In this document: piece after piece, positions 3,155-64,000 of the stretch
How positions within the stretch are numbered: the first letter of the stretch is position 1
Layout of the letters: every line of letters starts with the position of its first letter
NCBI GenBank assembly: GCA_050273025.1
Contig: CP158635.1
Location: forward strand, 12,710,001-12,774,000
Reading direction: 5' to 3'
Length of the DNA stretch: 64,000 bases
Origin: Cenococcum geophilum
Lineage: Eukaryota
Translations under genes and position numbers: made by a program
The notes under the pieces: model-generated
What the model was told of the DNA's origin: nothing
What the model saw: the letters and a program-made list of their open reading frames with translations, nothing else
Database searches by the model: none

Positions 3155-3262
3155 CCACCCCCCTCCTCTTTATCTTCGTCCTTAAAGATATCTCCTATCT
3201 CTAAGTTATCTATTAGAGGTATAATATTCCCGTTTTTAATTTAATAACCTTTATTATTTTTA

Positions 3263-5956: not shown

Positions 5957-7766
5957 TTAATAGATCTTAAGGATTAGCTCCTAGGTAAACAACTCTTTAA
6001 GTTTTTTAATTAACTTCTTTTATTCTTCCCCCTATACCTATAGTTTCTCTTTCTTTATAAGTCTTATAAATAGTTTAATATTCTTTAACTACTATACTAT
6101 AAACCATCTATAGTAGTTGCAAACTCCTAAAAATAATTTTAACTGCGTTATATTCTCTAGTTCTTACCAACTTACTATAGCTTTAATTTTCTTTAGGTCT
6201 ATACTAATATAACCTAGTTTAATAATAAATTTAACAAAATTGGTCTTCCTAGTAAAGAACTTATATTTTTTAATTGCTACTAGTATCTATTCTTCTTATA
6301 GTCTCTTTAAGACCTATTTAATAGATTCTCAGTGTTCTTCTTTACTTATTAAATAGATAATAATATCGTTAAAGTATGCTATAATAAACTTATTAAGGTA
6401 TTCTCCTAATACGCTATTAATTTGCTTTTAAAATATTACTAGTACGTTTATAAGTCTAAACTATATAACTAATAGTTTGTATAGTCCTTCCTTTAACCTA
6501 AAGACTGCCTTCTATTTGTCGCCTTCTTTAATTCTAATCTAATGGTATACCCATCTTAGATCTATCTTTGTAATGATTTACGCATTACTTATTCTATCTT
6601 AAATTTTGCTAATTAAGGGTAAAGGATATCTATCCTCCCTAGTAATACTGTTTAACTATTTATAGTTAATACATAGCCTAAGCTTTCTATTTTTCTTAGG
6701 TATAAATAGTACTAGATATTCTGCTAATAACTGCAATAGTCTAATATATCCCTTTTATAGGTTTTCTTAAATAAACTCTTTAAGTACTCTTAACTCTTCT
6801 TTAGTTAGCTTATAGATTAAAAAGAACTTTAGACTTATTCCTAGTTTTAATTTTAATTTATAGTTCTATACTATATACTCTAATAGCTTTTTACTTTTTA
6901 GGCTCTATAGCTTCTTGCTATACTTATAGTATCTTTTTAGTATATAACTTAAGCCCTACTTAATCTTTTTATATATCGCTCCGACTTAGTACTATACTAT
7001 TTTAGTTTATTATTATATCTTACGTTATTAAGTATCTTTAATATTAACCTAACCTATAACCCAATCAATCTTTAGATTATATTTCTATAACTAAGGCATT
7101 CCTAGTACTGCCCTACCCCGTCCTAATAGTAAGATATTAAAAGATATCTTAATTTATCTCCCTTTAATAGTTATTTAAATAGGTCTTATTTTAAGATTAA
7201 TAATGCCTCCTTAATAGGCTATTAGATCTTTTAAAATTATAACTAGTAAATATAGGTACTCTTTTTATCTATAAAGTAGCCCTATTTATTTTACTATTAC
7301 TAATAAGATATAATTTCTAGTTACTCTATTATCTATTAGTGCCTTAAATTATTAATCTTACTATTTAACTTATAGATTTAGGTGTTGTCCTTAAATTCCT
7401 TTAAGGGTTTAAGCTCCCTCTAGTTTTATAGGCCTCTACTTTTTCTAACTATTAGCTACTTAATCCTGTTATACTTAGCTTATTTTTTAACTAATGCCTT
7501 ATTTACTTTTTATCTTTAATATACTATAAATATATATTCTCTAGGCATTTTCACTACTATTATCTATCTAGGTATTCTTCTATAAGGAATCTTTTTAGTT
7601 AAAGTATTAAGTCTCCTAACTCCTAAACTTTTATTAAATACTATTTATATATATACCTAATATTTCTATATTTTTACTCCTCTAGCGCCTAATATATTCT
7701 TATAGGGTACTTCCTTTTTTTAATTCTTATATATATCGCATATATTATCTATATATATAATCTATA

Positions 7767-43100: not shown

Positions 43101-43443
43101 TTTATATAAAGGCGTCTATAAAAGACTTCTATATCTCTACTAATTATTCTTAAAGTGCGGATATAATGCCGGCGGCCATTATAGGAGTTTTAGGTTCGTT
43201 TTATATATTAATAGTAATATAGGTAGTTAACGTAATATAGTGTTACGGAGTAAGTATAAGCCGCGATAATATATAGTAAGGTAGATATTATTAAGCTATA
43301 TATATAAACTATATAAGGAGGTTAAGATATTATATAAGGAAAGAACGTAGGAAAATGGGAAGAAAGGGTATATATTATAGACTTAGTTACTTAGTTAATA
43401 TATATATAGAGTAGAATAGGATTTAGGTAGTAGTCTTAGCAGA

Positions 43444-46400
43444 TATTACGGACGCTTTAAGTACGATGTTACGACTACTTGGAGAAGAGTTAGAAGAAGC
43501 TAGTTAGTTAATATAAGCACGGTCTAGGATGGAACCCGTGGAACTATATAACGAGGAATGGTAAGCAAGGTCACGTGATGTAATCTATATAATCTGGGTA
43601 ATCTGCGAGATCTGTAATAGAGTAAACAGAGCAGACAGAGTAGATAGAGTAACGACTTTCTTAGGAGTACGGTTATGTATTTAAGGACCCTTAGTCCTTA
43701 CCTAGATAGTTCCTTCCTTGTAGTAATTCTTAGAATATAATTGGAGTTAATCTATTAGGCAACCACTCTATCAGTTATTATTACGTTATTAACTACTATT
43801 TTTACATTTCCTATATACCTAGCCTATTAACAGAACCCACCGTAGTTCCTACTACAAGGTTCCGTTATATAATTACTACCACGGTTATAGTATTAAATAC
43901 AGGGAGTTAAACAACATGCCACCAAAAGCAGCCACTATGACGCTATTGACGGCGGCAACTACTTTAAGGTCAGGGGGTAATACTAGTATAGCGGACACTA
44001 ACTCGCAATAACCTATAACGGTAGAATAATTATAAGAAATAGTTAACCAGTTAATAGAAAATAATGCAGTACTTAAGAATAGGGTTAACAGGATCGGAGT
44101 AGTAAAGGTTAAGTTACCTTTAATTAAACGATTTTTAGGGGAGAGATTAAAGCTTAAAGGATTCCTAACGTAAATGCATTTTAAAGTTATATAAGAGGGG
44201 GCCAAGTTAGCCATAATAATGGATTAGATAGCCTACGCAGGACTATTCCTAACAGGTTAGGTACTTAAATAGTTTAAACCCTACTTAATGGAAATATAGA
44301 CTAACGGAATAACTACTATTAATTAAGAGGTACGATTTATGTTTTCTAGCTAGGTAGGATTTACGGAATAATTAATATAGATATTCGGGGACCCGGAAGC
44401 GACAACTATAGTAAAAAGAAAGCTTTAGGACCTAATATAGCGAACTTTAGTAATTAAGTACACGATATAATTTTAAACACTTACTATATAGGTTAAATGG
44501 AACGATAAGGCGCTTATGGCACAGTATAAATAGGGACTTAAGGCTAAAGTCTAGGACGTAATTATTCTAATAGAAGATGTGGATACCCTAAGGGAATTAA
44601 TAGATTAAGCGATTAAGATTAATAGTAGGATCTTCTAAAGGAAACAGGCTAAGAGAGGCTAGGACAAAGTTCTATAGTTATATAAGATATAGAGCACGCA
44701 ATAACTAAAGCTAAATTAGAAACTATGGTATAGCGCAGAGCTAATAGACCTAAGTGGTACTAAAGAAACCTATAAGAGATAAAGTAAGAAACTATAGAAA
44801 CCTAGAGGTTAAGGATTAAGTAATTATAGAACTAAGGAGTATAGGCTAAACTAAGGATCTTAATAGCAGAAGACGTTTAAGCGAACTCTATAGTAAAAGC
44901 AATAGTTTAAAGATGGAGCTTGCATAAATTACAGAAAACAGAATTATTTTACTAAAGACTATAGAAGTAGTTAGAGTTATTATATAGTAAAGGGAACTAG
45001 ACTAATAGTATATAATATACATATATAGAGGAATAATAGTATACTATAAGGAACAAAAGAATATTTAATTAGAAGTTTTACGTTTTGTTATAATAACGTA
45101 TACTAAATTTATAAAGACGCTAAGTACGGTATAAGCTATTAGCCATAAGAGCTAGAGTTAAGAGGACTTAAAGGAACTAAAGAGTTAGATAAAGAATAAG
45201 ATCGACTCTATAAGCTAGATTAAGATATTATAGCAATATATAAATAATAATTAGCAATAATAATAATAGAGTTAGAGTACTTATTAATTAACAGTAATAA
45301 GGATAGTAAGGGAACTAACTAGGGGTATCTAAACCTTAATAACATAATAGAAGTAAAGACTAAGACCGCTATAGAGCAAGATTTAGTAACGAGTATTATA
45401 ACACCGTTAGATACGGTATCTATTACTTTATAAGACGGAAGGAGTAATATTTAGAGATAATTAAGTAAGCAGATAACTGCTAGTGCTAGCTTACTACTTA
45501 ATAAAGGCAAAAGGCTAAAGGCTTAAGATTCTTAAGACGAGATAAGAGACGACTAAGATTCTTAAAAAGAGATAAGGTATGCTTAAGGACCCATAATAGA
45601 CGAAAACCAATAAAGCAGGGCAGTAGCTTAGTTTAAGAATATACGAATAAGCTCGGGACAAGTGTTCCTAACGGTATAAGATTCTTAAGATAAGATAAGT
45701 AAGATTTAAGACTCTTAAGACGAGATAAGAACACTAGTAAAGCCTAGTTGGACTAAGGCTGGAGTATAGCTTAAAAAAGAAGTAAGCTTAGGATTAAAGA
45801 ATCTAAGGGATTAAGAATTCGGAGTATAAATTAGGACACCTATAAGTAAGAGGTAAGAAGCTTCTTTATAGATTAGAGAATCTGCAATATAAATAGTAGT
45901 TAGATTAGGAGACAGATATATAGACCTAGCGGACTTACTAGTTAAATAAGATGTTTAGACTAAAGATTAAGAGTTTAATACTAAGATTAAGAAGTAAGAA
46001 GACTTTAAGGATCTACTTATAAGACACAAAAGGAAAGAAACTATAGAGGAGTTTAGAGTAAGAATTACCTTATAGTAAGAATAGAAACTAGACAAGAGAT
46101 CTAGTATATTAGGACGTATAAAGGACAGAGCACTAGTATAAAGAATTACTAATAAACCTAAGATAGGTATACTAAGAGCTAAGTGGCTTACTAAACTAAA
46201 ATAAGAAGAGGATCTATAGATTCCTACTAGGTTTAAAGAACGACATATAAAAGGCTGTTATAATATAGTAATAAGGAGATACTTCCTTATGGACAAACCG
46301 TATATACTCTAATAACTATACTAAAAGTGGTATAGGCAACGACACAACAATAAGTGGGAAGATTTCTATATATAGTTAGACGAAAAAGTTATCTAAGACC

Positions 46401-49400
46401 ACCTAATTACGGAAAAAGTAATAAATTATATTAAGGGGGCCTTAATTATAATATTAAAGGATCTAAAGGAATAATTAGAGGACTAGAGAAGCAAGAGACG
46501 CGTCTTAGTACCTGCGAATAAAGTTATAACGTTTAGATTAGTGCAATAGAGGTTTAAACTTAAGGATAAAGATAAGCTAAGAGTTAACCTAAAGCACCTA
46601 GCATACTATACGCTATTATAGATTGTATATATAGACAATATATATAAAATACATAAGAATCTAAAAGAAAAGAATTGGAAATACCCTATAAGGATATACT
46701 GGATAATAGATAAATAATAGTATAGGAATGCTAAATATATGCATAGATGGCATCCGGTAAAAGTCTAAAAGAAAAGAAATTTAATACTTTAACCAGGAAG
46801 ATTCCTTATGGAAGAATGCTTAGATGGATAATAATAGTAGGAATGTCCAAAGAACACCTATTTATAGTATATTAAAGACAAAAAGCGAACTAGGCATTAA
46901 CTAAAGAATAAGCCAAGTATAATAGAATTAAGTAGCCAATAGTTAAGAAAAGTAGAGGCCTATAGGACTAGAGGGAGCTAGTAGTAGAGCCTTAGACCCT
47001 TAAAGGAATTTAAGAATAATACCTAAACCTAAGAGTTAATTAGTAAGATTAGTAGTTTAAAGTATTAGTAGATAGTGGAGTAATAAGGAACCATATTTTA
47101 CTAGCAGCAGTAAAAAGGATGGGGCTACTATATAGATAAAAAGAGTACCCTTATCTATTAGTAACGATTTTAGGAGATTTAATAGCCTATGGAGGAGGTA
47201 TTATTAACCTTAAAATAGGACCAATTTAGATAACTATTAAAGGAAGATAAGTTAAGATATCTTTTAACATATTACTATTAGGGAATAATAAGGCAGTATT
47301 AGGAATGCCTTAGTTACAGGAATATAATCTAAAGATTAATTAGGTTATAGGTTAGGTTAATATCAGAAATATATAATAACATAAGATGTAATAATAAACC
47401 AAGTTAGTATAGTATTAAGTTAGAGTGATATACAAAGAGACTAATTAAGGATTAAGTTATGTACTAAAGAGATACTATAAATATAGTAAGAAGCTATAGT
47501 TACTAAAAAGTAAAAAGCTATTAGAATATATAGTATAGGACTATAAGATAGAGTTAGAATTAGAAACGAGTTTAAGGTTCTACCTAACCTATAAGTTGAT
47601 AGAAAAAGAGTTATAGGCACTTAAGAAGTTTGTCTAGGAAAATCTTCAAAAGGGATATATTAGACTATTGCAGTTATTAGTGGGATATCTAGTACTATTC
47701 GTACTAAAGAAGAATAGAAAACTTAGGCTATGTATTAACTATAGACAGTTAAATAGCATTACTAGGAAGGATAGGTATCCTTTACCCTTAATTAGCGAAA
47801 TCTAAAATAGGATTGGTAATACACAAATCTTTACAAAGATAGATCTAAGATAGGCGTACTATTAGATTAGGATTAAGGAAGGCGACGAATAAAAGGCAGC
47901 CTTTAGGTTAAAGGAAGGACTATACAAACCACTAGTTATGCAATTCGGACTTATAAACGCACTAGCAACGTTTTAGAAGCGTATTAACAATGTGTTAAAA
48001 GAATACTTAGATAAATTTGTTATAGTATATCTTAACGATATTATTATCTACTTAATAAGTAAGGAAGAATATAGAGAACACGTTAAATGGGTTTTAAAGA
48101 GACTATAGGAAGAATAGATACTAGTAGTAATTAAGAAATACGAGTTCTTTACTAAGAAGACGGATTTCATTAGATTTATTATTAAACTAGGCCAACTCAG
48201 CATAGATCTAAAGAAGATTAAGGCTATAGTGAATTGGTAAAAACCAGAAAATGTAATATAGTTAAAGTTATTTCTAGGGTTCTATAACTACTGCAGAAGG
48301 TTTATAGCTTAATAGTTAAAGGATATTAAGCCACTTATAAGATTAATAAAGAAGGAAGAACTATAGGTATAGGGAGAGGAATAAAAGGAACTGTTTAAGA
48401 GAATTAAACAGTTATTTACCTAGGAGCTAGTTCTTAAAATCTATTAACCATAGTTGGAAATAGTGGTCGAAACAGATGTATTAGACTATGCACTAGGAGC
48501 GTACTTTCTATAGAAATATAAAGATAGATAGCACCCAGTGGCATACTATAGTTAAAAAATAACACTACTAGAACTAAACTATAACATCTATAATAAGGAG
48601 TTGTTAGGTATAGTTACAGCACTAAGGGAATAGAGATCATTCTTATAAGGTATAGAAAAACTATTTATAGTTAAGATAGATTATAAGAACCTAACGGGGT
48701 TCCTAATAATAAAAGAACTTAATTATAGATAAGTTAAATAGGCGGAGATGCTTATAGAATACTATTTTAAGATTTAGTATACTAAGGGTACAGAGAATGC
48801 ACGAGTAGACGCTCTAAGTAAAAAGACTAAACTATAGAATAACGAAAAGCTATTAGGGGCTTTATTGCGAAAAGATACAGATAGATTAATTAGGTACAAT
48901 TATCTAAAGATCGCAGTATATACAGAAGAAATATTAGCGGAAGATGTCGCTAGAATCTATATTAAGGAAGTATTTATAAGATATAGAGCACTAAATAAGA
49001 TTATATCGGACAGAGATCTAAGATTTATAGCAGTATTCTAGGAAGTGTTTTTAATAGAGTAAAGAGTTCGAGCAGTAACTTTTACCGTATATTATCCACA
49101 GATAGACGGTTAAATGGAAAGATTAAATTAGACACTAGAGCAGTATCTAAGGCATTATATTAATTACGCACAGAATAATTGGGTATTGCTATTACCAGTT
49201 ATATAGTTTATATATAATATAACACTATAAGAAGGAATAGGCACGTTACTATTTAAGGCGAATTATAGATATAAGCCGAGGACCTTATTATCGCCACGTT
49301 AAGTAAAGAAAATAAGTAGTATAGCTAAGCAAAGAATAAAGAGCTTAATAAATCTTTATATAGACCTTATAGAAATAGCTAAGGTGGTATAGCAAGGGAT

Positions 49401-51017
49401 GAAAAAGTACTACGATATTAAGAGATCTAAGGGACTAGATCTTAAGGAGGGAGATAAAGTATAGCTACTATATAAAAATTTTAAGAGTTAACAACTAAGT
49501 AAGAAGTTAGACTATGTTAGACTAGGACCTTTTAAAATTATATAGAGAATTTCACTAGTTATATTTAAGTTGAACCTATTAGCTAGAATAAAGATCTACC
49601 CTATATAGTATATTGCGATGCTAGAGCTAGTATATAGGAATGTTAAGCTACTAGTTTACGAAGCAGATACATATAGAGGATAAAAGGAAGACAAATAGTA
49701 AGTTTTAAAGATTATTAGTTATAAGGATATAGATAATAAAATATAGTATAAAGTAAAGTAGATAAGCTATAATAAGACTACCTAGGAGCTACTAGAGAAC
49801 CTAAAGAACGCTATAGGAAAGGTATAGGAGTATTAAAAGAGAAAAGGTTAGGCAATATTAATAAAGAAGAATCGCCAAAGAACGAGTTATTTAACGGGGA
49901 TTTAGGAAGAGCAACTACCAAACTACTTAGAGTTATTTTTTTCTCTATTAGAAGAAAATCCGTTTTTTTATTACTAAGTTCCTATAAACCTTATTCTATA
50001 AGTTTCCACTTCTTAGAACGAACCTTCTTGCGAACTCTCTTAAGACGAATTAACTAAGCGGACGCAGTAAGATAAGAATTAAGAGCCCGTTGTTAAGCAT
50101 TAACCGCCTCTTTCTTAGCGTTACATAAATAATGAAGTTCCGCTAAGGCAACGGACAGTTTATTATTAAGCTTTATAGTAACAAATTAAATATAAGACCC
50201 TATAATAAATTACTTAGGGAACTTAGAGACTATTAAGAGTCATAGGACGCGTATACTTAGCGTTAGAAATTAAGCAAATATCGCAAGACAATTAAATATT
50301 TGCTTTAGTGCACTCTAAATAAAAAGAGGGTTATTAAGATAAAGGACTCGCCAATATAATATAGACTAACCCCTTTTTCACGCAACGAGAATATAGAGAT
50401 AGTATTATTTCACTAAGCGATAGTATAGAAGAAACTGTACGCGTATAATAAAGGGTCGAAGAAGAAGAAGGTGCTTTAGGTATTATAAGCAACAATATTA
50501 ACCAAATTAATTAAACGGATATCACACCTTTAGTAAATAACTTGGAGATACTAGGTATCTTTAAAGACGAAGATAAAGAGGAGGGAAATAGTGTTACGGA
50601 CGCTTTAAGTACAATATTATAACTACTTAGAGAAGAGTTAGAAGAAGCTAGTTAGTTAATATAAGTACGGTCTAGGATAGAACCCGTAAAACTATATGAC
50701 GAGGAATAGTAAGCAAGGTCACGTGATGTAATCTGTGTAATCTGGGTAATTTACAAGATCTGTAATAGAGCGAATAGAGCAGACAGAGCAGATAGAGTAA
50801 CGACTTTCTTAGGAGTACGGTTGTGTATTTAAGGACCCTCAGTCCTTACCTAGATAGTTCCTTCCTTATAGTAATTCTTAGAATACAATTGGAGTTAATC
50901 TATTAGGCAACCACTCTACTAGTTGTTATTACGTTGTTAACTACTATTTTTGCATTTCCTATACACCTAGCCCATTAATAGAACCCACCGTAGTTCCTGC
51001 TATAAGGTTCCGTTACA
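43444..51017 (+). mobile_element. Ty3/Gypsy chromovirus G (7574 bp, A-related), inserted in the C2 LTR
   Basis: 426-bp LTRs 43444-43869 and 50592-51017; TSD GCAGA. gag ATG 43916, protease 'LVDSGVIRNHI' (~47065), RT 'YLND', RNase H 'VETDVLDYALG', integrase 'YYPQIDG*MER', chromodomain ~49690-49830. Confidence 0.95.
49960..50483 (-). pseudogene. Antisense accessory ORF of Gypsy G (Zn2Cys6-like + coiled coil), RIP-degraded; 3' end approximate
   Basis: Reads IPKAPSSSSTL...YSRCVKKGLVYIILASPLS**PSFYLECTKANI*LSCD; 55-nt intron 50254-50200; exon 2 'LSVALAEL...LIRLKRVRKKVRSKKWKLIE*GL*EL'. Confidence 0.7.
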
Positions 51018-51209
51018 GCAGAACTTAATAGGATTTAGTAGAACTTAGTAAAACTTAGTAGAACTTAGTAGAATATAGCAAAATATAATAGGTTGCCGTT
51101 AGATTGCCACAGATTGCTATTAGATTGCCGTTTTGTGGTTAGTCTTTAGTTGCTAAGTTAGTAAAAATAGGTAGATATATATAAGGTGTTACGGGGATAT
51201 CCCGTAACA

Positions 51210-53790
51210 AAAGCTTAGGTCTGCTCTATAATACTACTAAAATACCTACGCTTTTAGTTACCTTTTAGCTTTCTACTAAAAGAGGTCTAGTTCCTTACTA
51301 TATCCTTAACGTTTAAAACCGCTTATTTAAAATCCGTATATACGGTAATCTACAGTATAGCTTCTATACACTTTATTTTATTATAAATTGCTAGCTTAAT
51401 TCTAACCTAGATAAATCCGATTTTCTTTTTCTTATAAATACTACCGTCTTTATTTTTAAAGGGCTTTAGATCTATTTATTAAGTATAAGTTTCTATAAAG
51501 TTTATAAACTAGCGGAAGTCTTAACGGCCTAGCTGTATACTATTCTAGAATTGTTCTATATTGTTATATTATACAATATATAAATTTTAGGTCTAACCCT
51601 TTAGAAAGGTCTATGTTACGGAGTAAGTATAAGCGACGATAATATATAGCAAGGTAGATATTATTAAGCTATATACATAAACTATATAAGGAGGTCAAGA
51701 TATTACGTAAGGAAAGAAGGTAGGAAAATGGGAAGAAAGGGCATATATTATTAACTTAGTTGCTTAGTTAATACATATATAGGCAGAATAGGGTTTAGGT
51801 CGTAGTCCTAGCAGAACTTAGCAGAATTTGGTAGAACTTGGCAGAATATAGCAGAATGCCGTAAATTGCCGTTAGATTGCTATTAGATTACCATTAGATT
51901 GCTATTTCTCGGTTAGTCTCTAATTACTAAGTCGGTGGAAATAGGGAGATATGTGTAAGGTGTTATGGGGGTGTCCCGTAACAGTCTACAGCTATAGCTA
52001 TATAGTAATTTACTCTTTATTAAGTTAATTAAGCGCGATTTAGTTTAGTAATTAGTTTTTAATCTTACTAATAATTTAGCGTATACGCTCTTTAGTATTA
52101 TCTTATATTATTAGTGTTTTAAAAAAGTTATCTACCTTATAAACCTAATTGTCTAAATACTAGGCATTAGGTTTATAATAAAGTTCTAGACAACTAAAGG
52201 CCTTAGCTAGTTAGTCTATATCCTTTTTCTATTTATTATATAGGTGCCTCTTTAAGTCTTCTATACCTCTTTAAGTAGGTATTAAGTAACCCTAAAGAAG
52301 CCCTTAACCTTAACTAGGTTATAAAAGAATTTACTTAGCTTAGATTAAACCCTACTAAATATAGATTTGCCCTTAAAGGGTTCTAATATATTTATTAATG
52401 GCTTCCTCCCGTATAGCTTCTAAGAGCCTTATAACAGCTTCCTAATATCCGTCTTAAAGGAGATTAGTATAGGGCTTTTAAATTTCTAAACTTAGGCCTA
52501 GGGAAGCTCCTGCTATAGAGGTAGTATTAGTATTAATAGCTAGTACGGGTTTCCTAATAAGCCTTAGGTCTCAAGTTAGTATTTAAGTTTAGTTTCCTAA
52601 AGGGGTAGGCCCGCTTAGCTTATAAGCAGTCTATATACCGCTACTATACTAATTATATGCCGGTAGTCTTCCGGAAGGGTTCTAGTTAGGTCCTTAGTTA
52701 AATATATTAGTATATTTCTCTAGCATTTTTAGCTTAAGGGAAGATCTTAAAGTTACCTTTAGTGCTTAATCTTTTAATTAGCCTAGGTAGGGCTAAAGGG
52801 GTTTGAGTTACTTTTTAGTAGCGTTATAACCGTTATAAAGGGTATCTATATTTTCCTTAGCGGTAATTATAGATATATAAGAGTCTTTAAGCTCCTAGAG
52901 TATCTTAGTATTAGGGCTTATTTAGCCGTCTTACCTAAAGGTTTATATTATTGCAATCTCTTATTATTAAAGGGACCTTTCTACCTTAGCGCGACGGCTT
53001 TTTATAAGGTGCCCATAGAGTTTCTATTTAAGTTATCGCGAAATTTTAAGGGAGGATAGTAGTTATAAATAAAAGATATAAATAAATAATCTAGTTTTTA
53101 AGCCAGCTGCACTTTTAAATAAAGTAAAAAGGATTTAAATATAAGGGGACTTTATAGATAGTGGGCTATAAGGACACAATTATAGAATAAAATTAATTAG
53201 TAAGAGAGGAGAATCCTTAAGGAGCTAAGGCCTCTAGGATTGTGGAGACTATATACTATAGGTATATACCTCTAGTATATAACTAGCGACCATTTAAGGG
53301 GTGTCCGGGGGTTGTCCTAAGGGCAACCTAAAGTGGCCGCAATAATATCCCTTATAAGTAGTCCTTTTAGCTATATAAAAAGTAAGCTCCTTAATTACTA
53401 AGGGCCTATTTATAGAGGTCGCTATATATAGGCCAAATATATACTAAACCTATAGTAGGACTAGCTATATAGCTAGCTACTAGATTAATAGTAGGCTATA
53501 CAGCTGGTACCGTATAAGTTATAGATTATACTAGGGCATTATAGGCCGTTTTTAAAGTGCTTATAGTTTAGTTTAAAGAGTTTCTAGCTTTATACCGCTT
53601 AGCTCGTGCCTTAATTTAATAGAGGCCTTAGTTAATAGCTAGACAGTAGTCCGTAAGTACCTTTAGCGTCTATATAGTAGTAAAAACTAGTAGTATAGCG
53701 CGCTATAGGTCTAGGGTAAGCTTATTAAAGAGGTTTAGTATTAAGTCTTTATACTATTAGAAGCTATCTAAAACCCTCTACGAAAAATTA
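51210..53790 (-). other. RIP-mutated DNA of unidentified origin (possible decayed gene or element)
   Basis: Strong TpA excess but no recognisable TE motif or homologue in the window; a minus-strand frame at ~51990-52440 has only TAA/TAG stops. Confidence 0.4.
51614..51983 (-). mobile_element. Solo LTR of Gypsy C family (370 bp)
   Basis: TG...CA ends; TSD GTCTA (51609-13 / 51984-88); reverse complement of 39657-40027. Confidence 0.95.
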
Positions 53791-54341
53791 GCCCAGTTTT
53801 ATCTCGAATACAACGCAAACATATACTTTCTAGCGCATCGCAATGGCCGATTGCACGGGTTCACATCTACAGATGAGACTGGTCAGCCTTGACGCCCCCA
53901 AACCAAAATATCTTACGCTCTCGCCCCTCACCACTAACGATACTAACCTCTAGTAAGGACAAACTGTACTCCCACCAATTATAAAGTCGCCAGTCCACTA
54001 CCATCAGGCTCGACGTGAACACTGAACGGGACCTTGGCACAAAGCACGTGATCAACAACACAGTCATCGCCAAGCTGATTTGAGGATAAGACGCTAGGGC
54101 ACTTCAAGCTTGGACTTTACGAATGGCCGCCTGACGTCAGTGGGAAGGCTCGGGAGGAGACCCGTCTTCGGGATGGAGAACCGTGCGTAAAAGCTTATTT
54201 AGTCCTCGTTTGATGGTGAGCCATGGCGGTATGCTTCATTCGTGACATCAAAGAGCACCTGCAATGACACAGCATCTGAGGAAAGGGGTACTGAGCGAAG
54301 ATGTCGGTTCGCGCGGAGAAATCAAGCGCCGACACGCCTAA

Positions 54342-55211
54342 TCAAATCTCCAGCTCCGCATCGTCCATGTCTTCCATTACCAAACCTCCCTCCCTATGAT
54401 GGACATCCTCTTCTCTGCCGCGCTCCTGGTCCTCGAGAAATTCCATGATACCTTCAACGGCCTTTTCCTGATCAAGGAAGTGCTTCAATACTCTGGTGAA
54501 CTTCGTGGTCTGGCTTCTCTGCGTCTTGCTCCTGCATAGCTGCCGTCCCGCTGTCCGTGCCTGACTCCTAAACAGCTTAAAGGCTGCCCTGTCCAACAGC
54601 ACGAGACATTCTTCTTCCACAGCCACCCATGTGCTCATAAGGTCTAGCGCACGGCCTTCGAGAAACTCTCCCTCTTCAGCCACATTCGAGATAGGTTCAA
54701 GGAGTCGTTTCTCAAACCTCAGGACATTCTTGCGTAACTCCATTTCCCGGATAGACTTTAGAAAGCCTACGTCGAACCAGTGCTTCTGGACAGCCTCCCA
54801 CTGGTCGCTCAAGAGCTCGGGGTTGTCGGAGGCATCGTAGAAGGTCGCAGTATCTGTCCATGGCATAATTCCGTCTTCGGGCCTCCGTTTGCCCTTGTTC
54901 TGGCGGGGGGACATACGACAGGGCCCTCTTGATCCTACTTCAACTTCGTTATCGTTATCGTCGTCAATGAGAATTGGATTGCCTCGGACATCGTCAGTGC
55001 ATGATTTGGATTGCTGACCATTCCGCATACCTGAGGTCCCGCCAGTCTCGCTTGCGGACGGAATAACAACTTCATTATCTTCAATAACAATGACATTATC
55101 TGATACGATCGTTAGCAGGAGTTATCAGCCTGAGCTCGCATTCCTACCATCTAATGTACCTTTCGAGATCTGCTGGCCGTCGTCTGGAGTCGGTGCCTCC
55201 TCCATCTTCAT
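54342..55211 (-). CDS. Hypothetical protein, two exons (55211-55160, 55099-54342); may be the 3' part of a frameshifted longer gene starting ~55708
   Basis: 228-aa ORF extended through an intron 55159-55100 (GTACAT...GCTAAC...CAG) that keeps frame; no recognised domain. Confidence 0.55.
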
Positions 55212-56521
55212 GTCTTCCTGACCAGCTCCGCTCTCTGCCTTCGCACCGGATTGTGGGTCAGCGGCGGTCACGATGTGCCCGGCATCGCGCTGAGACGGAT
55301 TATGCGTCGCATTCGGCCGGACGCTCGATCGATGGCTGCATTTCGATGTCTACCGCAGTCAGCGTGCTCTGGGCTTCTGAGTCCTGTTTCATAACCAGCA
55401 TCGGCGGAGAGGAGCGTTCCTTAGATATAGGGCGTTTATTGGGGATGCCCTCGCAGGTAGTTCGGTTGCCGTCGTCAGGACTGCCGAATTGTATGCCCTT
55501 CCCATCCGCCCAAACGCCGTCGGCCTCCTCTTTGACTGGTGACTCTTGTCGATTGCCCGACTGCATCTCCAACCGACGGAATCAGATTAGGGGCATCAGC
55601 ATTGCGAGTTTCATTCGATAACGGCCCTGTAGTGGATATTCTTCTGTCTAGGCCTGCTCTCCCGACCCTCTTTTCGCAAGCTTCGCTACTTGCTTCACCT
55701 GTCGGCATAGCACCTGAGCAAAGCCGCTTGGCAACCTACTCTGCCCGTCAGGATCGCAGAAGACGCGCTCAAAACGCTTGTCCAGCCCCTGGGACTCACT
55801 TCATGGCTGCATCCCGACATCCCGGCGTCACCAGGATTCTCGATCGACTAGAAGGTTAGCAATCCGAGCAAAACCATGCTTCGACAGAGGCATAGAGACG
55901 GGATATTGCTCAATCAGGGTAATGACATGGAAGAGTCGGAGAAGTGAGGCATGGTTGAGACCCATCTGATCCATGGCCGGCCATAGATACTTGTAGCATA
56001 ACATCAGGTGGCTTGAGCCTCCTTTAGCGCCGATGCTCCCCCTTCTTGCTAGACCATAGCTCCGAAGCTGTCCCATCACGCGGCATAAGGCTAGCTTAAG
56101 ATAAATCTACCGGTCCTCTTTGATCGGTGGAGTCTCAGCCGTGCTAGCATAATAACCGGAGGTGGCTCAGTTTTTCTACAAAGTGAATGCCTTCGCTGCT
56201 ATTGGCAACCTCTCAGCCCCCAGGGCTACCAGGTGACGCGGCATGAGACCCAGACAAAGGATGGCTGAGATTCCATCGATCAATGAGGACCAGTAACTTC
56301 AGCCAGCATAATAGCAGGTGGCTCGGTTCTCCTTGGTGCTGGAGCAATGCAGCTTGGTACAAATCAGGCGCGTCAGATGTTGATAGCATATGTCAGCCTC
56401 GAGGTGTTCGCTAAGTTACTGCTGGGATCTGGTATATATAGGCCCCCAATGCCGTTCAGAGAGCTTCACAGCCATCTACTCCCCTAAAAGGCTCGCACAA
56501 CCACCATCGTTCTCAACTGCC

Positions 56522-56958
56522 ATGGAGTCACCACCAAAGAAGTACGAATCAGCGAAGGCATGTTCCGACGAACCTACACATGCATGTGCTGAACCTGGCA
56601 CTTTAAATACCAATTCAGGTCCAGCTCGCGCTTGTTAGGAGGCGACGACGAATTCCTCAAGCCCCTCCTCACTACTTCAACGATACCCGATGGTACTCTC
56701 TACGAAGCTTGGGTATGGTTTCCCATCTTAATACTGCAACTAGAGCTAATTCAGATAAAGGAGAAATCTCTCTTGGAGCTGATAAACGATACCGAATCCT
56801 ACTATGCTGTGACGATAGATAAAGGGCAGGAGTTAGCAGTGATAATTTCTGATCTGATTAGGCTGGAGAGGAAGGGTAAGCAATCTGACCACCAAGCAAG
56901 TCCTTACGCTCACCACACTATATGTCACAGGTGGCCCTCTGATACACCGAGCGCATAG
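56522..56958 (+). pseudogene. Possible small multi-exon gene or gene relic
   Basis: Protein-like frame 'LGGDDEFLKPLL...SLLELINDTESYYAV' with intron-like GTATGG..GCTAATTCAG and GTAAGC..CACAG segments; model not resolved. Confidence 0.3.
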
Positions 56959-58321
56959 CGTTGTAGAGCGGAGGTTTTCTATTTGGTGTCACGAAGGTGA
57001 AATGGATTGCGGAAAATAGGACGGAAGGAAGGTGACGTACAAGAGCAGTCGGCATGCGAAGGTGAGTCGTGTGGCAGCCTGAAACCCAATACCCTTGAAC
57101 TATGCGAGAGTTTTGTACGCTGGCACTCTTTGCGTTTAATTGAAGGCTTTTGTTAGCAAGCACATATACCTTCAATGCTACAGCAGCAGGAAGGCCGGCC
57201 TTTTTGGTCGCCAATAGATTTCCGCGTTGGATGACAAGGCATTAAAGTAGGCATACGAAGCTTGAAGGCTGGACGATTCACTACGCTGTGCTTAGCCTGT
57301 TACTGCACCTTGGCAAATGCACCTTGGCAAATCTCGTGAAGCATGCCTCGCTCTCTTGTGTCACAGAACGCTTGCCTTGGTTCTTCTAAGCATGCCAACC
57401 AGTGCAACCCCGAATTGACTCTAGGTCGCCTCCAAACCCTCCAAGCGTGGTTGACACTGCTTCGCCGGCTTCTCATTCATTGAGCGCGCATCAGTGATAG
57501 AAATCTACACCAGAGATCTGCTGACATTACAATATGAGAAGTGTCGGGACGATATAGTTCAAAACGGGGAAGCACACCTGCCTCGCTAGGTTCTTCGACT
57601 CCTCATGTGTAGCATGTCCAGGTCGGTCAACGTCGCTTCCTACTTCCCCTCTAATCCCTCCGTTTGTCACAATATACTGACGGTTGGCGACTAATTGGTG
57701 CAGAAGCGTTTCTTGTCGCAATTGCTGACACGTATGGGCTGTCCTCGATAGCCATGTCTCTCGACAGACCTGGAATCATACATAAGCTTCCCCCGGACGA
57801 ACGTACCGACTTCGAAGACGCGATCACAGACTGCTTGGTAAGTATAACTTTCATGGACAATCAACGCCCTGTGACCCGTACTCTAGTCTCGCTTACCATG
57901 AAAGAATAGCGAGAAACGCACCAGGGCTTCTACAGTCTGCGCCGCTAGGCTAGACAGAGCGTTTTGTCGCAATCGAACCCCTCTGCAATTGGCGACAAGA
58001 ATCAGTGTTGATAATCGCGCCCAGTCTACACGATCGCGGCTGCGCGCTCCCCGATTATGGTCAGTTGCTGGTTTGAATTCCAATTGATCCATACGGTTCC
58101 CCTAGTGCTCAGTGAATGTACCTCGGATCTCAGCCATTTCAGCTAATTGCTGTTTTAGGAAAGTTGTATACGCGTGCACGGGCCACAGGGTTGATAAATC
58201 GTCAACTCAACTTCCACCTACAACCTCACGCGCTACTTAACGCCCATGCACTCAAAGCGCTAGTAGAGTAAGCCAAATTGCTCGCCGCGATCATAGCTAA
58301 CTAATGTTACGGTCCTAGTGT

Positions 58322-59560
58322 TCAAAGGTTACCGAAATCCTCGCTCAAAACCGCCGAGAAGCTCACCTGCGTCGCGCCCAGCGTTGGCAGCTCACCATTC
58401 ACCTCACGAGTGTCCTCGTCGTTGCCTACGCTGCTCACCTCCTCGGAGGCATTCATGGGCGCTCCCATTACAATCAAGCCTTGCCCATCCCAGTGAGCAA
58501 GCAGCTTCCTCGCCTCCATCACCTCTACGGCCATACGAAGCCTCCGGTCGTCAAGGAGCAGGCCAGCGAGGCTAAAGATACGCTCTGGCTCGTCGCTCAT
58601 CGGTGGAATATAGCGGATATCCATGGCCATACGCGCGAGGTGTGGATAACGTCCGCGAACCTCTGCCGATAGGATCAACCCCTTGTACTTGCGGCTTGCT
58701 CACCCGCTCCTCATACTCGTCGGCGGTTGTAGCAACGATAGATCCTTCTTCATAGATTGCGGCGGCGAAACAGGACCTTAACATGCCATGGGTCATTTTC
58801 CCCGCCCTGTGATCTTCGACGTGTCTCAACTACTCTAGGTAAGTCTCTATACTCGCGTTGTTAAGCCCCTCTCACTGAAAACTTTGCAGCCCTCAACCCA
58901 GCTCGCTCGGCGTCATGTCTCATTGGCGGTTGATAAAGTGCCACTTGCGGCGTGGGTCGAGTACGATCGCGGCTGCCTATATAAGCGAGCGATTCATGAG
59001 ACGGTAGTACTCATCTGCCTTCGCCCGGCCGTGCTCAAATGAAGCGTGGGGGGCATTGATTTCGCCCTTGTCACCACGGGCGTTAGGCGGTGCTTGAATA
59101 GCCACAGCGACAGTGAGTCTGTGCCCTTACCCTCGCGCTTGCTGGTACTAACAGCGTAGTTGTAGCGGCTGGCCTCCACGAAGTAGTTGATATCGGTCAC
59201 TAGATCAACAGCGCGCACGAGATAGGTGCTGTTCCACTGAGTTTGCTAGCTTGAGCTCTTATCGACAAGGCTTGGAGTTGACCTTGATCCGCTCACGCTC
59301 GCAGATCCACAGCCATCCCCCGTGGCTCTGAAGAGATTTACGCACCCATTTTACAGCATTGTGGAACCTGCCGACGAGTCCTTGATTGCTCAAGCTTTGC
59401 TTCGTCACGGGAGTCCTTCAGCAGCTGATTCTCTGCTTCGTCCTTGTCGCCAAACAAGAGGGATCTCGCCACCGCGACGCGCCGGCAGCAGACCGCTCTT
59501 CCTACGCATTCAATTACGGTCAGCGCTCGCGGTGGCACACAGCAGCTAGAAGACATACGG
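58322..59560 (-). pseudogene. Decayed hAT transposase relic
   Basis: C-terminal dimerisation domain 'RYPHLARMAMDIRYIPPMSDEPERIFSLAG' (58322-58678), 'TQWNSTYL' (=RWNST, ~59220-59243) and 'ARSLLFG' (~59460), in correct order but broken by indels. Confidence 0.75.
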
Positions 59561-60469
59561 CGTGGACGGCACGAGAATGCACATCATGCGCAGAGAAGGG
59601 TCTTGCGTCTTCCCAACCACTTACACCCGTCGTTGGCCCTCCGCGTTCTCATAGCACACTTTGGCTGCTTACATATACTGACTCTACCAGGTGTTCCCTC
59701 CGTCTATTATAGCAGGCCTCTCTCCTCGCGCCTTATTGCCTCCGTCACGCAGATTGCCCACTGTGGAACGTGCTAGCACACCTGGCTTTGTGACCGCCAT
59801 GTCCCGCTTTAATACTAAGAAAGAAACCCGGATGTCGTGCCTACAGACGCATATTCTGTCCCAAAACCTCATAAACAGCGTGCGCGCAGAAGGTGTCCGC
59901 CGTGCCCTGCCCGTCAAGAGTCTACACGTGACGTGGCTAAGATTACATTGGACACTTTTGGAGGACGAGGAGTATGCAACGGAGATCCGCAGTGATTAGT
60001 TGGTGCAGTGTTGGTATCACTGAAGCTCCGACCTCGGTAATACCACCTTCGCCGCTAAGGCCCGGATCGTTGAATAAGTCGGCGATGTTCGCACTAGTTA
60101 ATTCAACCCCCAATGCTCTCAAACTCAAGGATCAAGGTCTAGCTGTGCGTTAACCCAATCCAGGCACAGCAGAGTTGGGAGGCAGCTCGAATCAAATTTT
60201 CACCTAACTTTGGGCAGCAGCAATTGAAGAACTAAGCCGCCGCAACGCCGCTAGAGGCGGAGCTGTTGAGATCTGATATCATGCTTGGCGCCGGCCTCCA
60301 GCCTTCAGCATTACGTCTCAGCTGTGCAACTGCCCAAGAACCAGTCGTCCAATGTTCCGTTTTCCCCCATGCATAAAGACGTCCAGCGCCCAAATCCACA
60401 GATTCCTCACAACAATGTCTTTCCCACAAACTTGGATCGCACCCGAGTCGTCAAGCAATTTCCCGTACA

Positions 60470-60885
60470 TCAGCCTTCGACCGACTCCGCCGCCTCCTTC
60501 AGCCCCTGCTCCACATCATCCTTCGTGCCATCCTTCTTCACCAATACACTAGCCATCACGGCGTGAGTACCACCATTGGCCTCCCTCCACCGTTTGATGG
60601 AAGATGGAACCTTCCCAGCATTAGGCTGCATCTGGAACTTGTGGAATACACCGTCCGCTTTTGTAACTTCCCCATCATAGTCCCACCGGACCCCAACGCC
60701 TTCTTGCTCCGCCTGGCCTTTAGGAAAGGCTGTTTTGCCGCGTCCAGCACTTGGGTTCGTAAACTTCTTCCAAGTATTGCCATCAACAGCCTTGCTGACA
60801 GCGTTCTTGAGAGCCTTCTGCATTATAATCAAGGGTTAGATCTGGAAGGTTAGCCTTATCCCACGTTTGTCTCGATGAAGGGCAT
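60470..60885 (-). CDS. Small hypothetical protein (~122 aa; exons 60885-60865, 60817-60470)
   Basis: MPFIETN + KALKNAVSKAVDGNTWKK...AESVEG via a 47-nt intron (GTGGGA...CTAAC...GCAG); intact, non-RIPped; TATA-like element ~61010. Confidence 0.7.
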
Positions 60886-61570
60886 GTCCTTACATTCAAA
60901 GCGTGGAGCTGCAAAAGCTAAGAAGGGTGAAGGGAGGGTCTCGACTTCGTGACCACAGGATGATGGGGTAAACTCAGAACTGTATTACATAGATCGGGTA
61001 GGAGAAGCTTATATAGCTAACAGATAAAGAACCAAGAGTGCAGGATGAGCAGGTGGACCAGGAATATCCCTTCATCTGGCAAGTGTGACTTTTCGTATTG
61101 GGCGCTTTAGGCGCTGTTGCCTGGGTTAGCATGCTGCAGGTACCCTAGCTAGCGTAATTTTATTAGTCGGCCTCACCAAATCGCGTTAATATTGCGATGC
61201 CGATGAAATGCTACAGAAGGCTACTACCAAAGACATCAAAAAGTCGTGCTATATGACGTTATGACTTTAGGTTTCTGCCCTTCCCCCATTAATCAGCTGC
61301 TGATTATATAGGAAAATTCTCCATTAGAGTCCTCCCTCGAATTACTGCCTCGGAGGCTTTAGAGCTGAAGACGTACCGCGTTTTTTAGGCGGTATAAGGA
61401 TAATATTCTGCTGATAATTTAACGATTAAATAGACGGCGATAATATTAAAGCTTTTTGATTAACTATACCAAATATTATAGGCTTCCTGGCTATCCAAGC
61501 GTCAATGAGGCGCCAGCACCCTTGCTGCCGAGCAATCGCACTGACCAGAGGCTTCAAACACCAAGCTCTA

Positions 61571-61719
61571 TCCCTTAACACGCTTGCGTCCTACGAGAGC
61601 GGGCCGTGCGCGAACACCAGAATCAAAAGTACGCGTATGGTCACGCAGCCTTGATCCTACTGATTCTATTGGCTAGCTCTTATCGATAACTGTAGGACGC
61701 AAACCAGCGTGTTAAGGGA
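61571..61719. mobile_element. MITE (149 bp), related to the MITE at 1938
   Basis: 14-bp TIR TCCCTTAACACGCT / AGCGTGTTAAGGGA, subterminal TTGCGTCCTAC / GTAGGACGCAA, TA flanks. Confidence 0.9.
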
Positions 61720-61816
61720 TACAGTATAAAGCCTCTAGATTGGCTTATGAGGCGTGCATATACGAAAAGTCCTTGAATTTTTGCCAGACCAAGGGATCGA
61801 ACGTACGGCTTCATAC

Positions 61817-63445
61817 TCAATACCTCATCATTTGCCCTTCAGCCCTCCTACAATCATGTAGTCTTTTGGTATACCATTTATACATCTTCTGAATCGCACA
61901 CTAATCCATTTCCTCCTCAGAAAGCTGTCTAAACCTAGCTAGTGCCGCCTTCTCTATTGTACACCTTTTTGCGTAAAACTTCCTCTTAATCGGGTGAGCC
62001 ATTAATTTAAGAATACTAAAGTCTGGCGAGACACCAGGGAGTGTAATAAGAGATACTCCATTATCCTTTGCCCACTTAATTATTGCTTTACTTATATAGG
62101 CTAAATCGGCGTTATAGTAGAGGGTAAGACCGTAATCTAGAAGCTCGTCTTGGAGGGAAAAGAGGACTACTTTAGTATATACTTCTGTAGTCATCTTCCC
62201 TACTAAATTAGGCACTTCGTACGGTATAACCTTCCGCTAATTATAGCCTATTATAACGCCAATATTTAGAAGCTTAAGGTGTTCTTTCTCTTAAGCCTTT
62301 GCTTTTATATCCTTCGTAGTAACCTTCTTCCGGTGTATATTAGAGGGTTTATATTAATACTCCTTCCCCTCAGCGTGGTCGATTAAGCGGCCAGTCCGTA
62401 GACTAACCGTCACCCGATTGATCGCCCAAATTTTAGCTGCCCAATCCAGTCAGTCCATGAAGTTATCCGTCTTAATCCGGACTGGATCCGACTGATAGAG
62501 CTCTTAGTACCCCTGGATACGCGTAAAAGAGGGGTAGATAGACGCGTTCGCGTTGTTTTTGGTCCGTGCATGGTCCGTGCATTCACTATTTCCCCCTAAA
62601 TTCCCCCTAAACTATGCCTAAAAAGGCTTAAAACTAAGCTATGCTGCCCTGTCCGCCGTCTGTAGACGTTTGCAATCGGGCCTTATTGATCAGGCCAATC
62701 CGGCCGCTCTAATTAAGAGGCCAATCTGGCCGTCTGAACCTTAACGATCCAGACGTCGGGCAACTAACCACGCTGACTTCCCCTACTTCCCTCTTATACG
62801 CTTTGTTATTTAAGGACCAATACCAAAGTGAAACTCGTCGTAAAAGGCTACGTCTTTTTAGTTAAGGGAGTGTGGTCGAAGAGGGAGTTGTATATTAATC
62901 TAATTTGTCCGTGAAGTAGCTTATGCCTTTATTAACTCCTTCTCCTCCTTATAAACGCAGTTTATAATCCCTTTATCGTCTTAGTAAGCTCGTTAAATTG
63001 CTTTAGGATCGATTATACGGTAGCCTGGCGTTTTAAAGTGGTAGGTTTAAGGTAAGACTACGCCGGAAGCTTCTGCAATATCTGTCTAAGGCTTGCCCTT
63101 GTTATCAAGTAGGACTAAATCATCGTTAAGGTAATTGGCGATTGCAGCTGTCTTTGTTCGTGTAATCAATCTCTTTCTCCCTCGCGGATCTAGGCTAAAA
63201 TCAGGTATACTGTAAAGCGTTCTAGGTTGCTTTAAGGCTAGGATTCGAGACTGAGTACGTGGTGGAACGCCGGTAACCTTGTGGACGAGCTCTTGTGGAA
63301 TAGGAATACAAAGCTCTTATGAAAGTAGCTTTACGGCGAGTACTGGAGAGCGTTATAGTGTTTTAACTTGACTATCTAGTTGCAAGAACTCAATTGGAGG
63401 TGTAAGATAGCGCGCGCGAGACCTGCGGGTCCTAATTGGAGGCAT
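61817..63445 (-). mobile_element. Tc1/IS630-like transposase pseudogene, moderately RIPped; termini not identified
   Basis: 'YYNADLAY' (=DxDxxH) and 'LPGVSPDFSILKLMAHPIK' (=SPDLNPIE); frame continues to TGA at 61817 and is restored across the 62371 insertion. Confidence 0.8.
62371..62776. mobile_element. hAT-like non-autonomous element (~405 bp) inside the Tc1-like ORF
   Basis: Termini CAGCGTGGT / ACCACGCTG; 8-bp TSD CTTCCCCT (62363-70 / 62777-84). Confidence 0.85.
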
Positions 63446-64000
63446 TGGTGCATGTAGTTGATAAATTAGTTGGTTTATTTACATGTAAACAGACGGTTTT
63501 TGGTAGTTGCGCACGTGCTAAATTTCGGCCACTTATTTTGGCGACGTAGAGGCTGCTCATGCCCGGACGGCGGTTTCAGAGTCACTGTTCCACATGCAAC
63601 GGATATTCGGGGCATGTCGAGGTGGAGAACCATAGTGACGGTTTCTCTGGCCGAGAAAATCGTGAGACACCTGGCGGCGCGCCTTGCGGGCAGCTTACAG
63701 TCGCTTCAGAAAAGGATGGGTTTATGTCAGAAACCATGATCTAGTACAGAAATTTACCGAATCCTCACCTGTTTAAACCACTTTTCTGTACCCACGCATG
63801 ATACCACCTATCCTCCATACCAACACATCGCCGTTGCCTATTTTTTGAAGCTATTTAAAGCCTATATTTTTTCCTATTATAGTTAGCGCTATGGTATATA
63901 GGAGGAGAGCTAAAGCACCTAAGAATACTGCAAAGAATACTTCTAAAGCGCCTTAAGAAGTAGACCTTACCGTTAAATCTGCACTAATACCTCCTACTAC

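Follow-up and report, generated by a model that had tools for sequence, protein, structure and literature searches.

A probable two-exon antisense gene in a Ty3/Gypsy retrotransposon of Cenococcum geophilum inactivated by repeat-induced point mutation

The element and its antisense gene

The window analysed here is a stretch of 64,000 nucleotides (nt) from Cenococcum geophilum (GenBank assembly GCA_050273025.1, contig CP158635.1, positions 12,710,001 to 12,774,000 of the forward strand), and it contains a complete Ty3/Gypsy retrotransposon, here called element G, that has been degraded by repeat-induced point mutation (RIP). On the minus strand of this element, between pol and the polypurine tract (PPT) and on the strand opposite to gag-pol, lies a gene that spans 50483-49811 and comprises 205 codons in two exons (Table 1). 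With a probability of roughly 0.85 this is a real accessory gene of the Ty3/Gypsy family that has been inactivated in this copy, and the division into two exons is very probable.

The Gypsy setting had already been recognised in a preliminary description made from the letters alone, and it is confirmed by a pair of long terminal repeats (LTRs; 426 base pairs (bp) each, ~92% identical over the 422 bp aligned by self-BLAST), a target-site duplication (TSD), the PPT, and a plus-strand pol read-through in which the Pfam families RVT_1 (6.3e-20), RT_RNaseH_2 (2.8e-20) and SH3_Tf2-1 (1.4e-5) follow one another, i.e. the order reverse transcriptase (RT), ribonuclease (RNase) H, integrase SH3 of a chromovirus-type element. 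The chromodomain that was also proposed to lie beside the gene can be recognised by eye, whereas Pfam gave no match to the Chromo model at E <= 0.01 in the RIPped copy G. Stop counts are uninformative in G, because the pol frame (242 stops per ~2,520 codons) is barely better than the other two (275 and 293).

Read from 50393, the minus strand gives YSRCVKKGLVYIILASPLS, two stops, PSFYLECTKANI, a further stop and LSC; the frame of the second exon is amphipathic and reads KLNNKLSVALAELHYLCNAKKEAVNA, QRALNSYLTASA and LIRLKRVRKKVRSKKWKLIE, each followed by a stop. The minus-strand frame, the 55-nt segment from ATACGC to TAG and the amphipathic frame downstream of it are all located where the preliminary description had placed them, and so is the start at 50483, whereas its end at 49960 has to be revised: the gene runs on to 49811, and the last ~31 codons of exon 2 overlap the end of pol in antisense. 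RIP has killed copy G, in which ATG has become ATA, three Cys have become Tyr, the GT donor has become AT, and 8 premature stops have arisen between Met1 and the natural stop, all 8 of them TAA or TAG as first noted.

A relaxed form of the motif, with Cys or Tyr at each of the six positions, was observed three times, namely in the gene of G, in a second copy of the element (3348, plus strand) and at an unrelated place (43379, minus strand), compared to a mean of 1.05 matches in order-2 Markov simulations of the 54-kb AT-rich part of the window. With about one chance match per 54 kb the relaxed motif alone is therefore unremarkable, and it becomes convincing only through comparative data.

Table 1. 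Features of element G, its antisense gene and a second copy in the window.
Feature	Position	Strand	Evidence or content
Element G, complete RIP-degraded Ty3/Gypsy	43444..51017	+	self-BLAST, sequence reads, RIP indices
TSD GCAGA, 5 bp	43439-43443 and 51018-51022		flanks of element G; sequence reads
5' LTR	43444..43869	+	starts TATTACGG, RIPped from TGTTACGG
pol read-through: RT, RNase H, integrase SH3, chromodomain-like tail	47500..49905	+	Pfam
pol stop TA(A/G)	49903-49905	+	codon table
Stop TAG of antisense gene	49813-49811	-	same C-terminal motif in P0181, P0187, P0189-P0192
Exon 2	49811..50199	-	split Trp codon, long helix, acidic/Ser-rich tail, C-terminal ...SSNTPIPFL
Intron, 55 nt	50200..50254	-	donor ATACGC, acceptor TAG
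CTAAC-like branch site	50217-50213	-	13 nt before acceptor
Exon 1	50255..50483	-	76 codons + 1 nt; purine/pyrimidine diversity, length in frame
Six-Cys motif C-x2-C-x6-C-x13-C-x2-C-x8-C	50283..50393	-	reads Y-C-Y-Y-C-C in G
Spacer between LTR/PPT and antisense start, 107 nt	50484..50590	-	purine/pyrimidine distance
PPT, abuts 3' LTR upstream	50563..50591	+	sequence read
3' LTR	50592..51017	+	TGTTACGG...GTTACA
Second, more decayed element copy	~2725-7770	-	self-BLAST
Antisense gene in second copy	exon 1 3263-3486, intron 3487-3541, exon 2 3542-3833	+	

Conservation of the gene among 82 copies

A word-based protein search with the exon-1 read-through (stops replaced by X) returned 9 open reading frames (ORFs) from other copies, and the alignment of these drove a metagenome scan that yielded 614 candidate stretches, 595 of which were confirmed by tblastn. 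The best 80 were kept as loci with flanks and aligned with the two copies of the window (MAFFT, from the LTR through the pol tail). LTR, spacer, gene and pol tail align throughout these 82 copies, at an occupancy of 0.79-1.0.

Cys (TGY) occurs at residues 31, 34, 41, 55, 58 and 67 in 11, 12, 3, 8, 69 and 38 of the 82 copies, respectively, and nearly all of the remaining copies have Tyr (TAY). Judged from the aligned codons, this alternation is a RIP-type change from TpG to TpA, which agrees with the earlier proposal that the TAT codons of G are converted TGY, and further columns with Tyr, Cys or stops resolve likewise to Arg, Gln or Trp. The start codon, ATA in G, is ATG in 12 and ATA in 69 copies, and an in-frame stop located 10 codons 5' of it (50513-50511) is found in 76 of the 82 (72 TAA, two TAG, two TGA; CAA never). 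All 82 copies have an intron of 55 nt, which starts with GT in eight (mostly GTGCGC) and with AT in 74, and ends with AG in 75 and AA in seven; the derivation of ATACGC from a GT donor, as first suggested, is thus visible in the eight copies that keep the G. The last base of the branch site is C in 5, T in 31 and G in 45 copies.

The coding test was restricted to purine/pyrimidine (R/Y, transversion) differences, counted by codon position and compared with 20,000 permutations of the columns; RIP makes no differences of this kind. For codon positions 1, 2 and 3 the R/Y diversity amounts to 0.038, 0.013 and 0.112 in exon 1, and to 0.081, 0.063 and 0.197 in exon 2 (50197-49940), and the third-position excess of either exon was not reached by any of the 20,000 permutations (p <= 5e-5 for both). 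The same permutation test found no such excess in the intron, in the LTR or in 49939-49814. When the alignment is scanned in sliding windows, diversity peaks in the phase of the exon-1 frame down to ~50235 and in that of the exon-2 frame from ~50204 onwards, the switch taking place across 50264-50175, and therefore only an intron length of 1 modulo 3 is compatible with the data. An in-frame intron of 57 nt that would use the surviving GT at 50256-50255 is ruled out by the phase of exon 2, and no other acceptor in the right frame was found downstream of codon 81 when the column table was inspected by eye.

Leu codons 87, 91 and 95 vary between CTN and TTR with the residue remaining Leu, and length is kept in frame in 80 of the 82 copies for exon 1 and in 72 for exon 2. 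Every length class with at least two copies is in frame, and the 10 out-of-frame classes of exon 2 are all singletons. This pattern of substitutions and lengths indicates that purifying selection acted on the gene as long as the family was active; the gene is present in most copies and conserved at the protein level, as antisense accessory ORFs are. Among the 40 variant positions listed (of 322) for the sequencing runs mapped to the 1-kb stretch of the gene, none is one of the six Cys positions.

The best-conserved block of the 3' region among the copies is the 107-nt spacer (mean R/Y distance 0.013), which is a candidate 5' untranslated region or promoter region of the antisense gene and must serve the PPT on the other strand. 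Transversion divergence, calculated over one common set of 53 copies, is 0.105 in exon 2 (0.19 at third positions) and 0.052 in exon 1, and it is 0.020-0.038 in pol (48383-49583) and 0.017 in the pol tail. The high divergence of the accessory gene suggests subfamily recombination or unusually fast evolution.

Intact relatives and the intron

A profile of the 80 exon-1 translations matched 217 representatives at E <= 1e-3 and 122 at E <= 1e-10 (1.84 billion searched). The full motif is present in 106 of the 150 representatives listed, with a central loop of 13 residues in 105 of these 106, and all six Cys are retained in two of the listed representatives (P0081 and P0112) as well as in the natural relatives P0163 and P0181. 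The lightly mutated P0069 and, after it, P0163 served as queries that led to intact sequences; the intact ORFs among the relatives measure 128-239 residues.

Six of the relatives (P0163, P0181, P0183, P0186, P0187 and P0189) read ...SD(A/S)E-W-S(R/Q)V..., i.e. they are intron-less exactly at the predicted split-Trp junction, and they stem from contigs of 921-1423 nt, whereas the intron is kept in P0190 (from a contig of 120,785 nt) and in P0182. Together with the codon-phase switch, these six junction-crossing sequences bear out the 55-nt intron and the exon-2 frame of the preliminary description. Codon 81 is Gln in five of the six intron-less relatives (Val in P0181). The C-terminus of the relatives, ...SMLPDLxSSDTPxPF, matches codons 190-205 in G, and the gene must therefore have 205 codons and overlap the end of pol.

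Two of the relatives have odd forms. In P0069 the exons are joined as ...DAE-CTFHVR-SAAARLD..., as if ~52 nt were missing instead of the 55-nt intron, and in P0181 the region upstream of the start is read in another frame and the usual Met is absent. Alternative splicing or deletions may account for both forms.

The encoded protein

The protein of ~205 residues begins with a Ser/Arg-rich stretch that contains a short helix, followed by the six-Cys motif, a helix of ~75 residues and an acidic/Ser-rich tail that ends in a conserved ...SSDTPIPF. In the AlphaFold2 (AF2) model of P0163, the long helix covers residues 77-151 at a predicted local distance difference test score (pLDDT) of 95-99, in addition to the short N-terminal helix, so that the helical second exon of the preliminary description is also found in the model. 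Folding, which was proposed there as a check, was less conclusive for the Cys region, where the pLDDT is only 47-70 in two models (P0163, and P0164 with 94 sequences). The homodimer prediction scored 0.48, compared to 0.00 for the best of three controls, with at least 82% of the contacts shared among three runs and a partner pLDDT of at least 77. In the calibration, 21 of 30 proteins with a solved pair structure, but none of 23 solved as single chains, attained this mark; the calibration set was microbial and contained no small molecules, which calls for caution as regards the zinc included in the prediction. The predicted contacts are antiparallel (residue 115 against residue 115), and on these models the protein probably pairs via its long helix. 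The Cys motif is a putative zinc-binding motif.

To which family the Cys part belongs is less easily settled. Pfam searches of the read-throughs of G, of the 9 other ORFs and of the 80 copies gave no relevant family, and profile searches of the PDB with two alignments returned nothing at E <= 10. Single sequences gave weak and mutually inconsistent PDB matches (PPR1 for P0163, a C2H2 linker for P0181 and P0182).

It is possible, if on the whole doubtful, that the Cys part lies in or closest to fungal DUF3716 (PF12511), in which case it would be a zinc-binding module that need not bind DNA. P0182 covers model positions 3-59 of 59 with 15.4 bits (E 0.018), but this score misses the cut-off of 22 bits, and the match is confined to one of the five apparently lightly mutated domain-bearing sequences, P0163, P0164, P0069 and P0181 having no Pfam match to the family. 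With the Cys part alone, only unnamed Ascomycota clusters were obtained in the ESM-Atlas, of which the one at rank 5 (0.75) has DUF3716 in 28% of its members, but the tool's calibration ranks a value of 0.75 as weak.

The preliminary description had likened the protein to the GAL4-type Zn(II)2Cys6 proteins, which would make it a sequence-specific transcription factor that binds CGG and dimerises through a parallel coiled coil. In this class the spacing is C-x2-C-x6-C-x5-12-C-x2-C-x6-8-C, and basic residues between Cys2 and Cys3 contact DNA. True membership seems unlikely. The six Cys and both C-x2-C-x(6-8)-C triads do fit, and a long helix follows the motif; Zn_clus (PF00172) is among the few families listed for three of the five apparently lightly mutated domain-bearing sequences; in the PDB, P0163 is matched best by PPR1, a Zn2Cys6 protein (1pyi, E 0.56), with PSCSRCAKEGLVC aligned to PSCKRCAKLEVPC; and the nearest ESM-Atlas cluster (0.90, 200 of 256 features, 204 residues, Ascomycota) has been labelled automatically as 'Zn(2)-C6 fungal-type domain-containing protein', a cluster that may be the protein's own. 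However, the Pfam search for Zn_clus, which was the other check proposed, stayed below the 21-bit cut-off throughout (P0163 13.6 bits, E 0.075; P0069 9.4 bits, E 1.5; P0181 8.1 bits, E 4). The match of P0163 comprises one half-site, and the registers are inconsistent among the three sequences, the first triad of P0163 and P0069 being aligned to the model's second half. Neither the 80 RIPped copies nor 12 representatives, among them the six-Cys P0081 and P0112, gave any match to Zn_clus in Pfam, and the C2H2 linker and the empty PDB profiles mentioned above point the same way. In addition, the 13-residue central loop is one outside the range of 5-12; the segment between Cys2 and Cys3, A-K-(E/K)-G-L-V, contains a single conserved Lys (Lys36, in 79 of 82 copies); the Cys fold is modelled without confidence; the predicted dimer is antiparallel; and DUF3716 scores about as well. 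The motif is binuclear-cluster-like in its spacing and is filed here under neither Zn_clus nor DUF3716, and the GAL4 assignment is not upheld.

Weight of the evidence for a spliced gene

Several results weigh against a conserved, spliced and Cys-rich gene product. Position 3 of the motif is Cys in just 3 of the 82 copies, and it is Tyr even in the lightly mutated P0069 and P0182. Because the loci had been picked by their tblastn similarity in the exon-1 frame, the signal of exon 1 (but not that of exon 2) may be exaggerated. Used as a positive control, pol has no clear third-position excess (0.026/0.031/0.036; 54 of 67 loci kept in the control alignment, 13 non-collinear ones dropped). The deRIP consensus is open over 72-73 codons in other frames too. 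Codon 81 is TAA in 77 and CAA in 3 of the 82 copies. No known Pfam family reaches its cut-off for the protein. The intron-less forms on contigs of ~1 kb, which are probably spliced mRNAs, are known from protein sequences alone. Finally, 19 reads of one raw-read RNA run (~12% of which was read) fell on the 1-kb stretch of the G copy, all of them less than 95% alike and none across the joint 50199/50255, and this joint was not seen in any of the four runs mapped.

The pol control is uninformative, because pol is nearly uniform among the copies. Codon 81 can be settled as Gln, because five of the six intact intron-less relatives read Gln. The RNA result comes from a dead copy and says nothing either way on expression. 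ORF length in the deRIP consensus was dropped as evidence for a gene, other frames being open as well.

It could be argued that splicing does not occur in vivo and that the exon-1 ORF alone (~94 codons, with its stop inside the 'intron') is translated, the downstream frame being separate or vestigial. Gene callers indeed report many unspliced ORFs of 63-107 residues from the same Met, and in most copies a stop follows ...LxVP inside the intron. Against this stand the strong codon periodicity of exon 2, whose frame fits only a +1 (55-nt) intron, the lack of a conserved start in exon 2 (codon 85 is ATG in 2 of 82 copies), and the six intact sequences that join both frames at the predicted junction, which together make an unspliced product highly improbable. 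It is scarcely conceivable that there is no gene at all, in which case the conservation would stem from signals beside the PPT that act in cis in the sense RNA or DNA, and AT-rich RIPped DNA would have produced the Cys/Tyr pattern by chance: the chance frequency of the relaxed motif, the several open frames of the consensus and the stronger conservation of 'intron' and PPT-proximal spacer than of exon 2 would fit such a view, but not the third-position excess in both exons with its frame switch at the intron, the shared in-frame length variants, the 217 representative clusters with the same motif spacing or the intact ORFs.

RIP and the setting of the element

Element G carries the footprint of RIP, with a TpA/ApT index of 1.63 and a (CpA+TpG)/(ApC+GpT) index of 0.43. 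Relative to the deRIP consensus, C to T plus G to A account for 21,029 of 26,320 changes, and C to T peaks at CpA (0.66) and G to A at TpG (0.68). The 80 metagenome loci are all RIPped as well (GC content 0.27-0.43). In the DNA runs the stretch is extremely repetitive (16,629 and 13,592 contigs mapped), with differences that are nearly all transitions. Contigs of two runs (X18, X5) contain GC-rich loose ends and inserted stretches, which suggest that less-mutated or unmutated relatives of the element exist in the same or in related organisms.

The second copy of the element has Tyr (TAT) at all six motif positions. Its 37-codon motif block is free of indels, and the sequence around this block is 63% identical and indel-rich.

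The first 54 kb of the window are AT-rich (GC ~0.27-0.40), and the adjoining block has a GC content of ~0.44-0.55. This block (54001-64000, GC 0.50 overall) has no RIP footprint, its indices being 0.96 and 1.15, and it is presumably the gene-bearing flank of a repeat nest. Another repeat family occurs at 43241-43443, 51614-51815, 40027-39825 and 26843-26553 (86-91% identity); its copy at 43241-43443 borders G on the left, and the family recurs ~600 bp to the right of G. Several RIPped elements are nested here.

Possible function

An intron that is antisense to the genomic RNA of a retroelement escapes loss by splicing, and this probably explains why the intron described here, which cannot be spliced from the genomic RNA, has persisted. 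As to the protein, it may act as an element-encoded nucleic-acid-binding or regulatory factor, e.g. on the element's own LTR, in which pairing via the long helix would be combined with a zinc-bound Cys motif. This regulator mechanism is a tentative one. A candidate target would be an array in the U3 of the 3' LTR (~50764-50727), where four tandem 9-bp units are found that are CAGATTACA-like in G and TAGATTATA in most copies. The deRIP form of these units is C(G/A)GACCACA, the G at the second base being kept in 31, 5, 8 and 7 copies, and it may hold CGG/CAG triplets; the units may be an enhancer or a putative binding-site array.

In its fullest form, the proposal would be that a large ascomycete Ty3/Gypsy family carries its own spliced antisense zinc-binding regulator, with a divergent binuclear-cluster-like or DUF3716-like domain and antiparallel helix pairing, which binds the LTR repeats of the element and switches sense transcription, silencing or targeting. 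Taken as a whole this is decidedly unlikely. If an LTR-binding regulator were nevertheless involved, it would be a fungal counterpart of HBZ of human T-cell leukaemia virus type 1 (HTLV-1), and the fastest-evolving gene of the element. Locus G itself is a dead copy and without consequence for the host.

Comparison with known systems

HBZ of HTLV-1 and ASP of human immunodeficiency virus type 1 (HIV-1) are minus-strand proteins encoded beside the 3' LTR. HBZ is spliced, dimerises through a basic leucine zipper (bZIP) helix and modulates LTR-driven transcription, and its start in the 3' LTR has been demonstrated. Expression of the gene of G backwards from the 3' LTR, as suggested in the preliminary description, would be conjectural. 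The gene of G shares with both its minus-strand location beside the 3' LTR, and HBZ may by analogy serve as a functional model, whereas the bZIP protein HBZ is not Cys-rich and has no sequence relation to the protein of G. The likeness to GAL4 and PPR1 (PF00172) consists of two C-x2-C-x6-C triads, a Pro two residues before the triad and a helix after the cluster, and the protein of G differs from them by its 13-residue loop, the lack of a basic run between Cys2 and Cys3, and a ~75-residue helix predicted to pair antiparallel. In a search of the papers available no paper was found that reads an antisense gene of an LTR retrotransposon as a zinc cluster.

Whether such a gene had been described before was left as a question in the preliminary description, and the layout is in fact known. 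Boty-like elements of Botrytis are reported to have an extra antisense gene, brtn (Zhao et al. 2011, Virology 417:248-252, as cited in PMC8365987, PMC7264820, PMC4227169 and PMC5987419). Boty, a Ty3/Gypsy element of an ascomycete, has a pol of the chromodomain type, and in the layout descriptions of PMC7264820 and PMC8365987 its antisense gene is placed between pol and the 3' LTR; brtn shares position, orientation and element type with the gene of G, a likeness drawn from these published layouts. A Monilinia transcript matched the BRTN protein record (PMC5987419), and the label 'brtn-106' in PMC4227169 might perhaps denote a shorter product. By comparison of names, no protein-search match of the antisense gene or its relatives is called BRTN.

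Plant Ty3/Gypsy elements have antisense ORFs (aORFs) between pol and the 3' LTR as well, namely maize Grande, rice RIRE2, Silene Retand and Phaseolus PvRetro13, and these are grouped with brtn by Vicient and Casacuberta 2020 (PMC7264820). According to that review, the aORFs occur in the majority of a family's copies, are conserved in the manner of the element's other proteins and have no known function; the word 'intron' does not occur in its text. Position and orientation are as in the gene of G, going by layout, which lies in the pol-to-PPT interval on the strand opposite to gag-pol as the aORF and brtn genes do. The plant ORFs belong to another kingdom and to non-chromovirus lineages, whereas the gene of G is marked by its six-Cys motif and by a spliceosomal intron. 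For a functional comparison, the nuclear aORF protein of maize Grande may, again by analogy, be useful.

The layout is thus already in print, and the gene of G is a well-supported further example from a widespread ascomycete Gypsy family. To these known systems it adds a clean fungal gene model, with an exact 55-nt intron, a start, a stop and a conserved domain layout, as well as 217 representative clusters in public protein data and clonable intact relatives, some of them intron-less. It also makes a point of method, namely that the coding signal can be recovered from RIP-dead copies via transversions by codon position.

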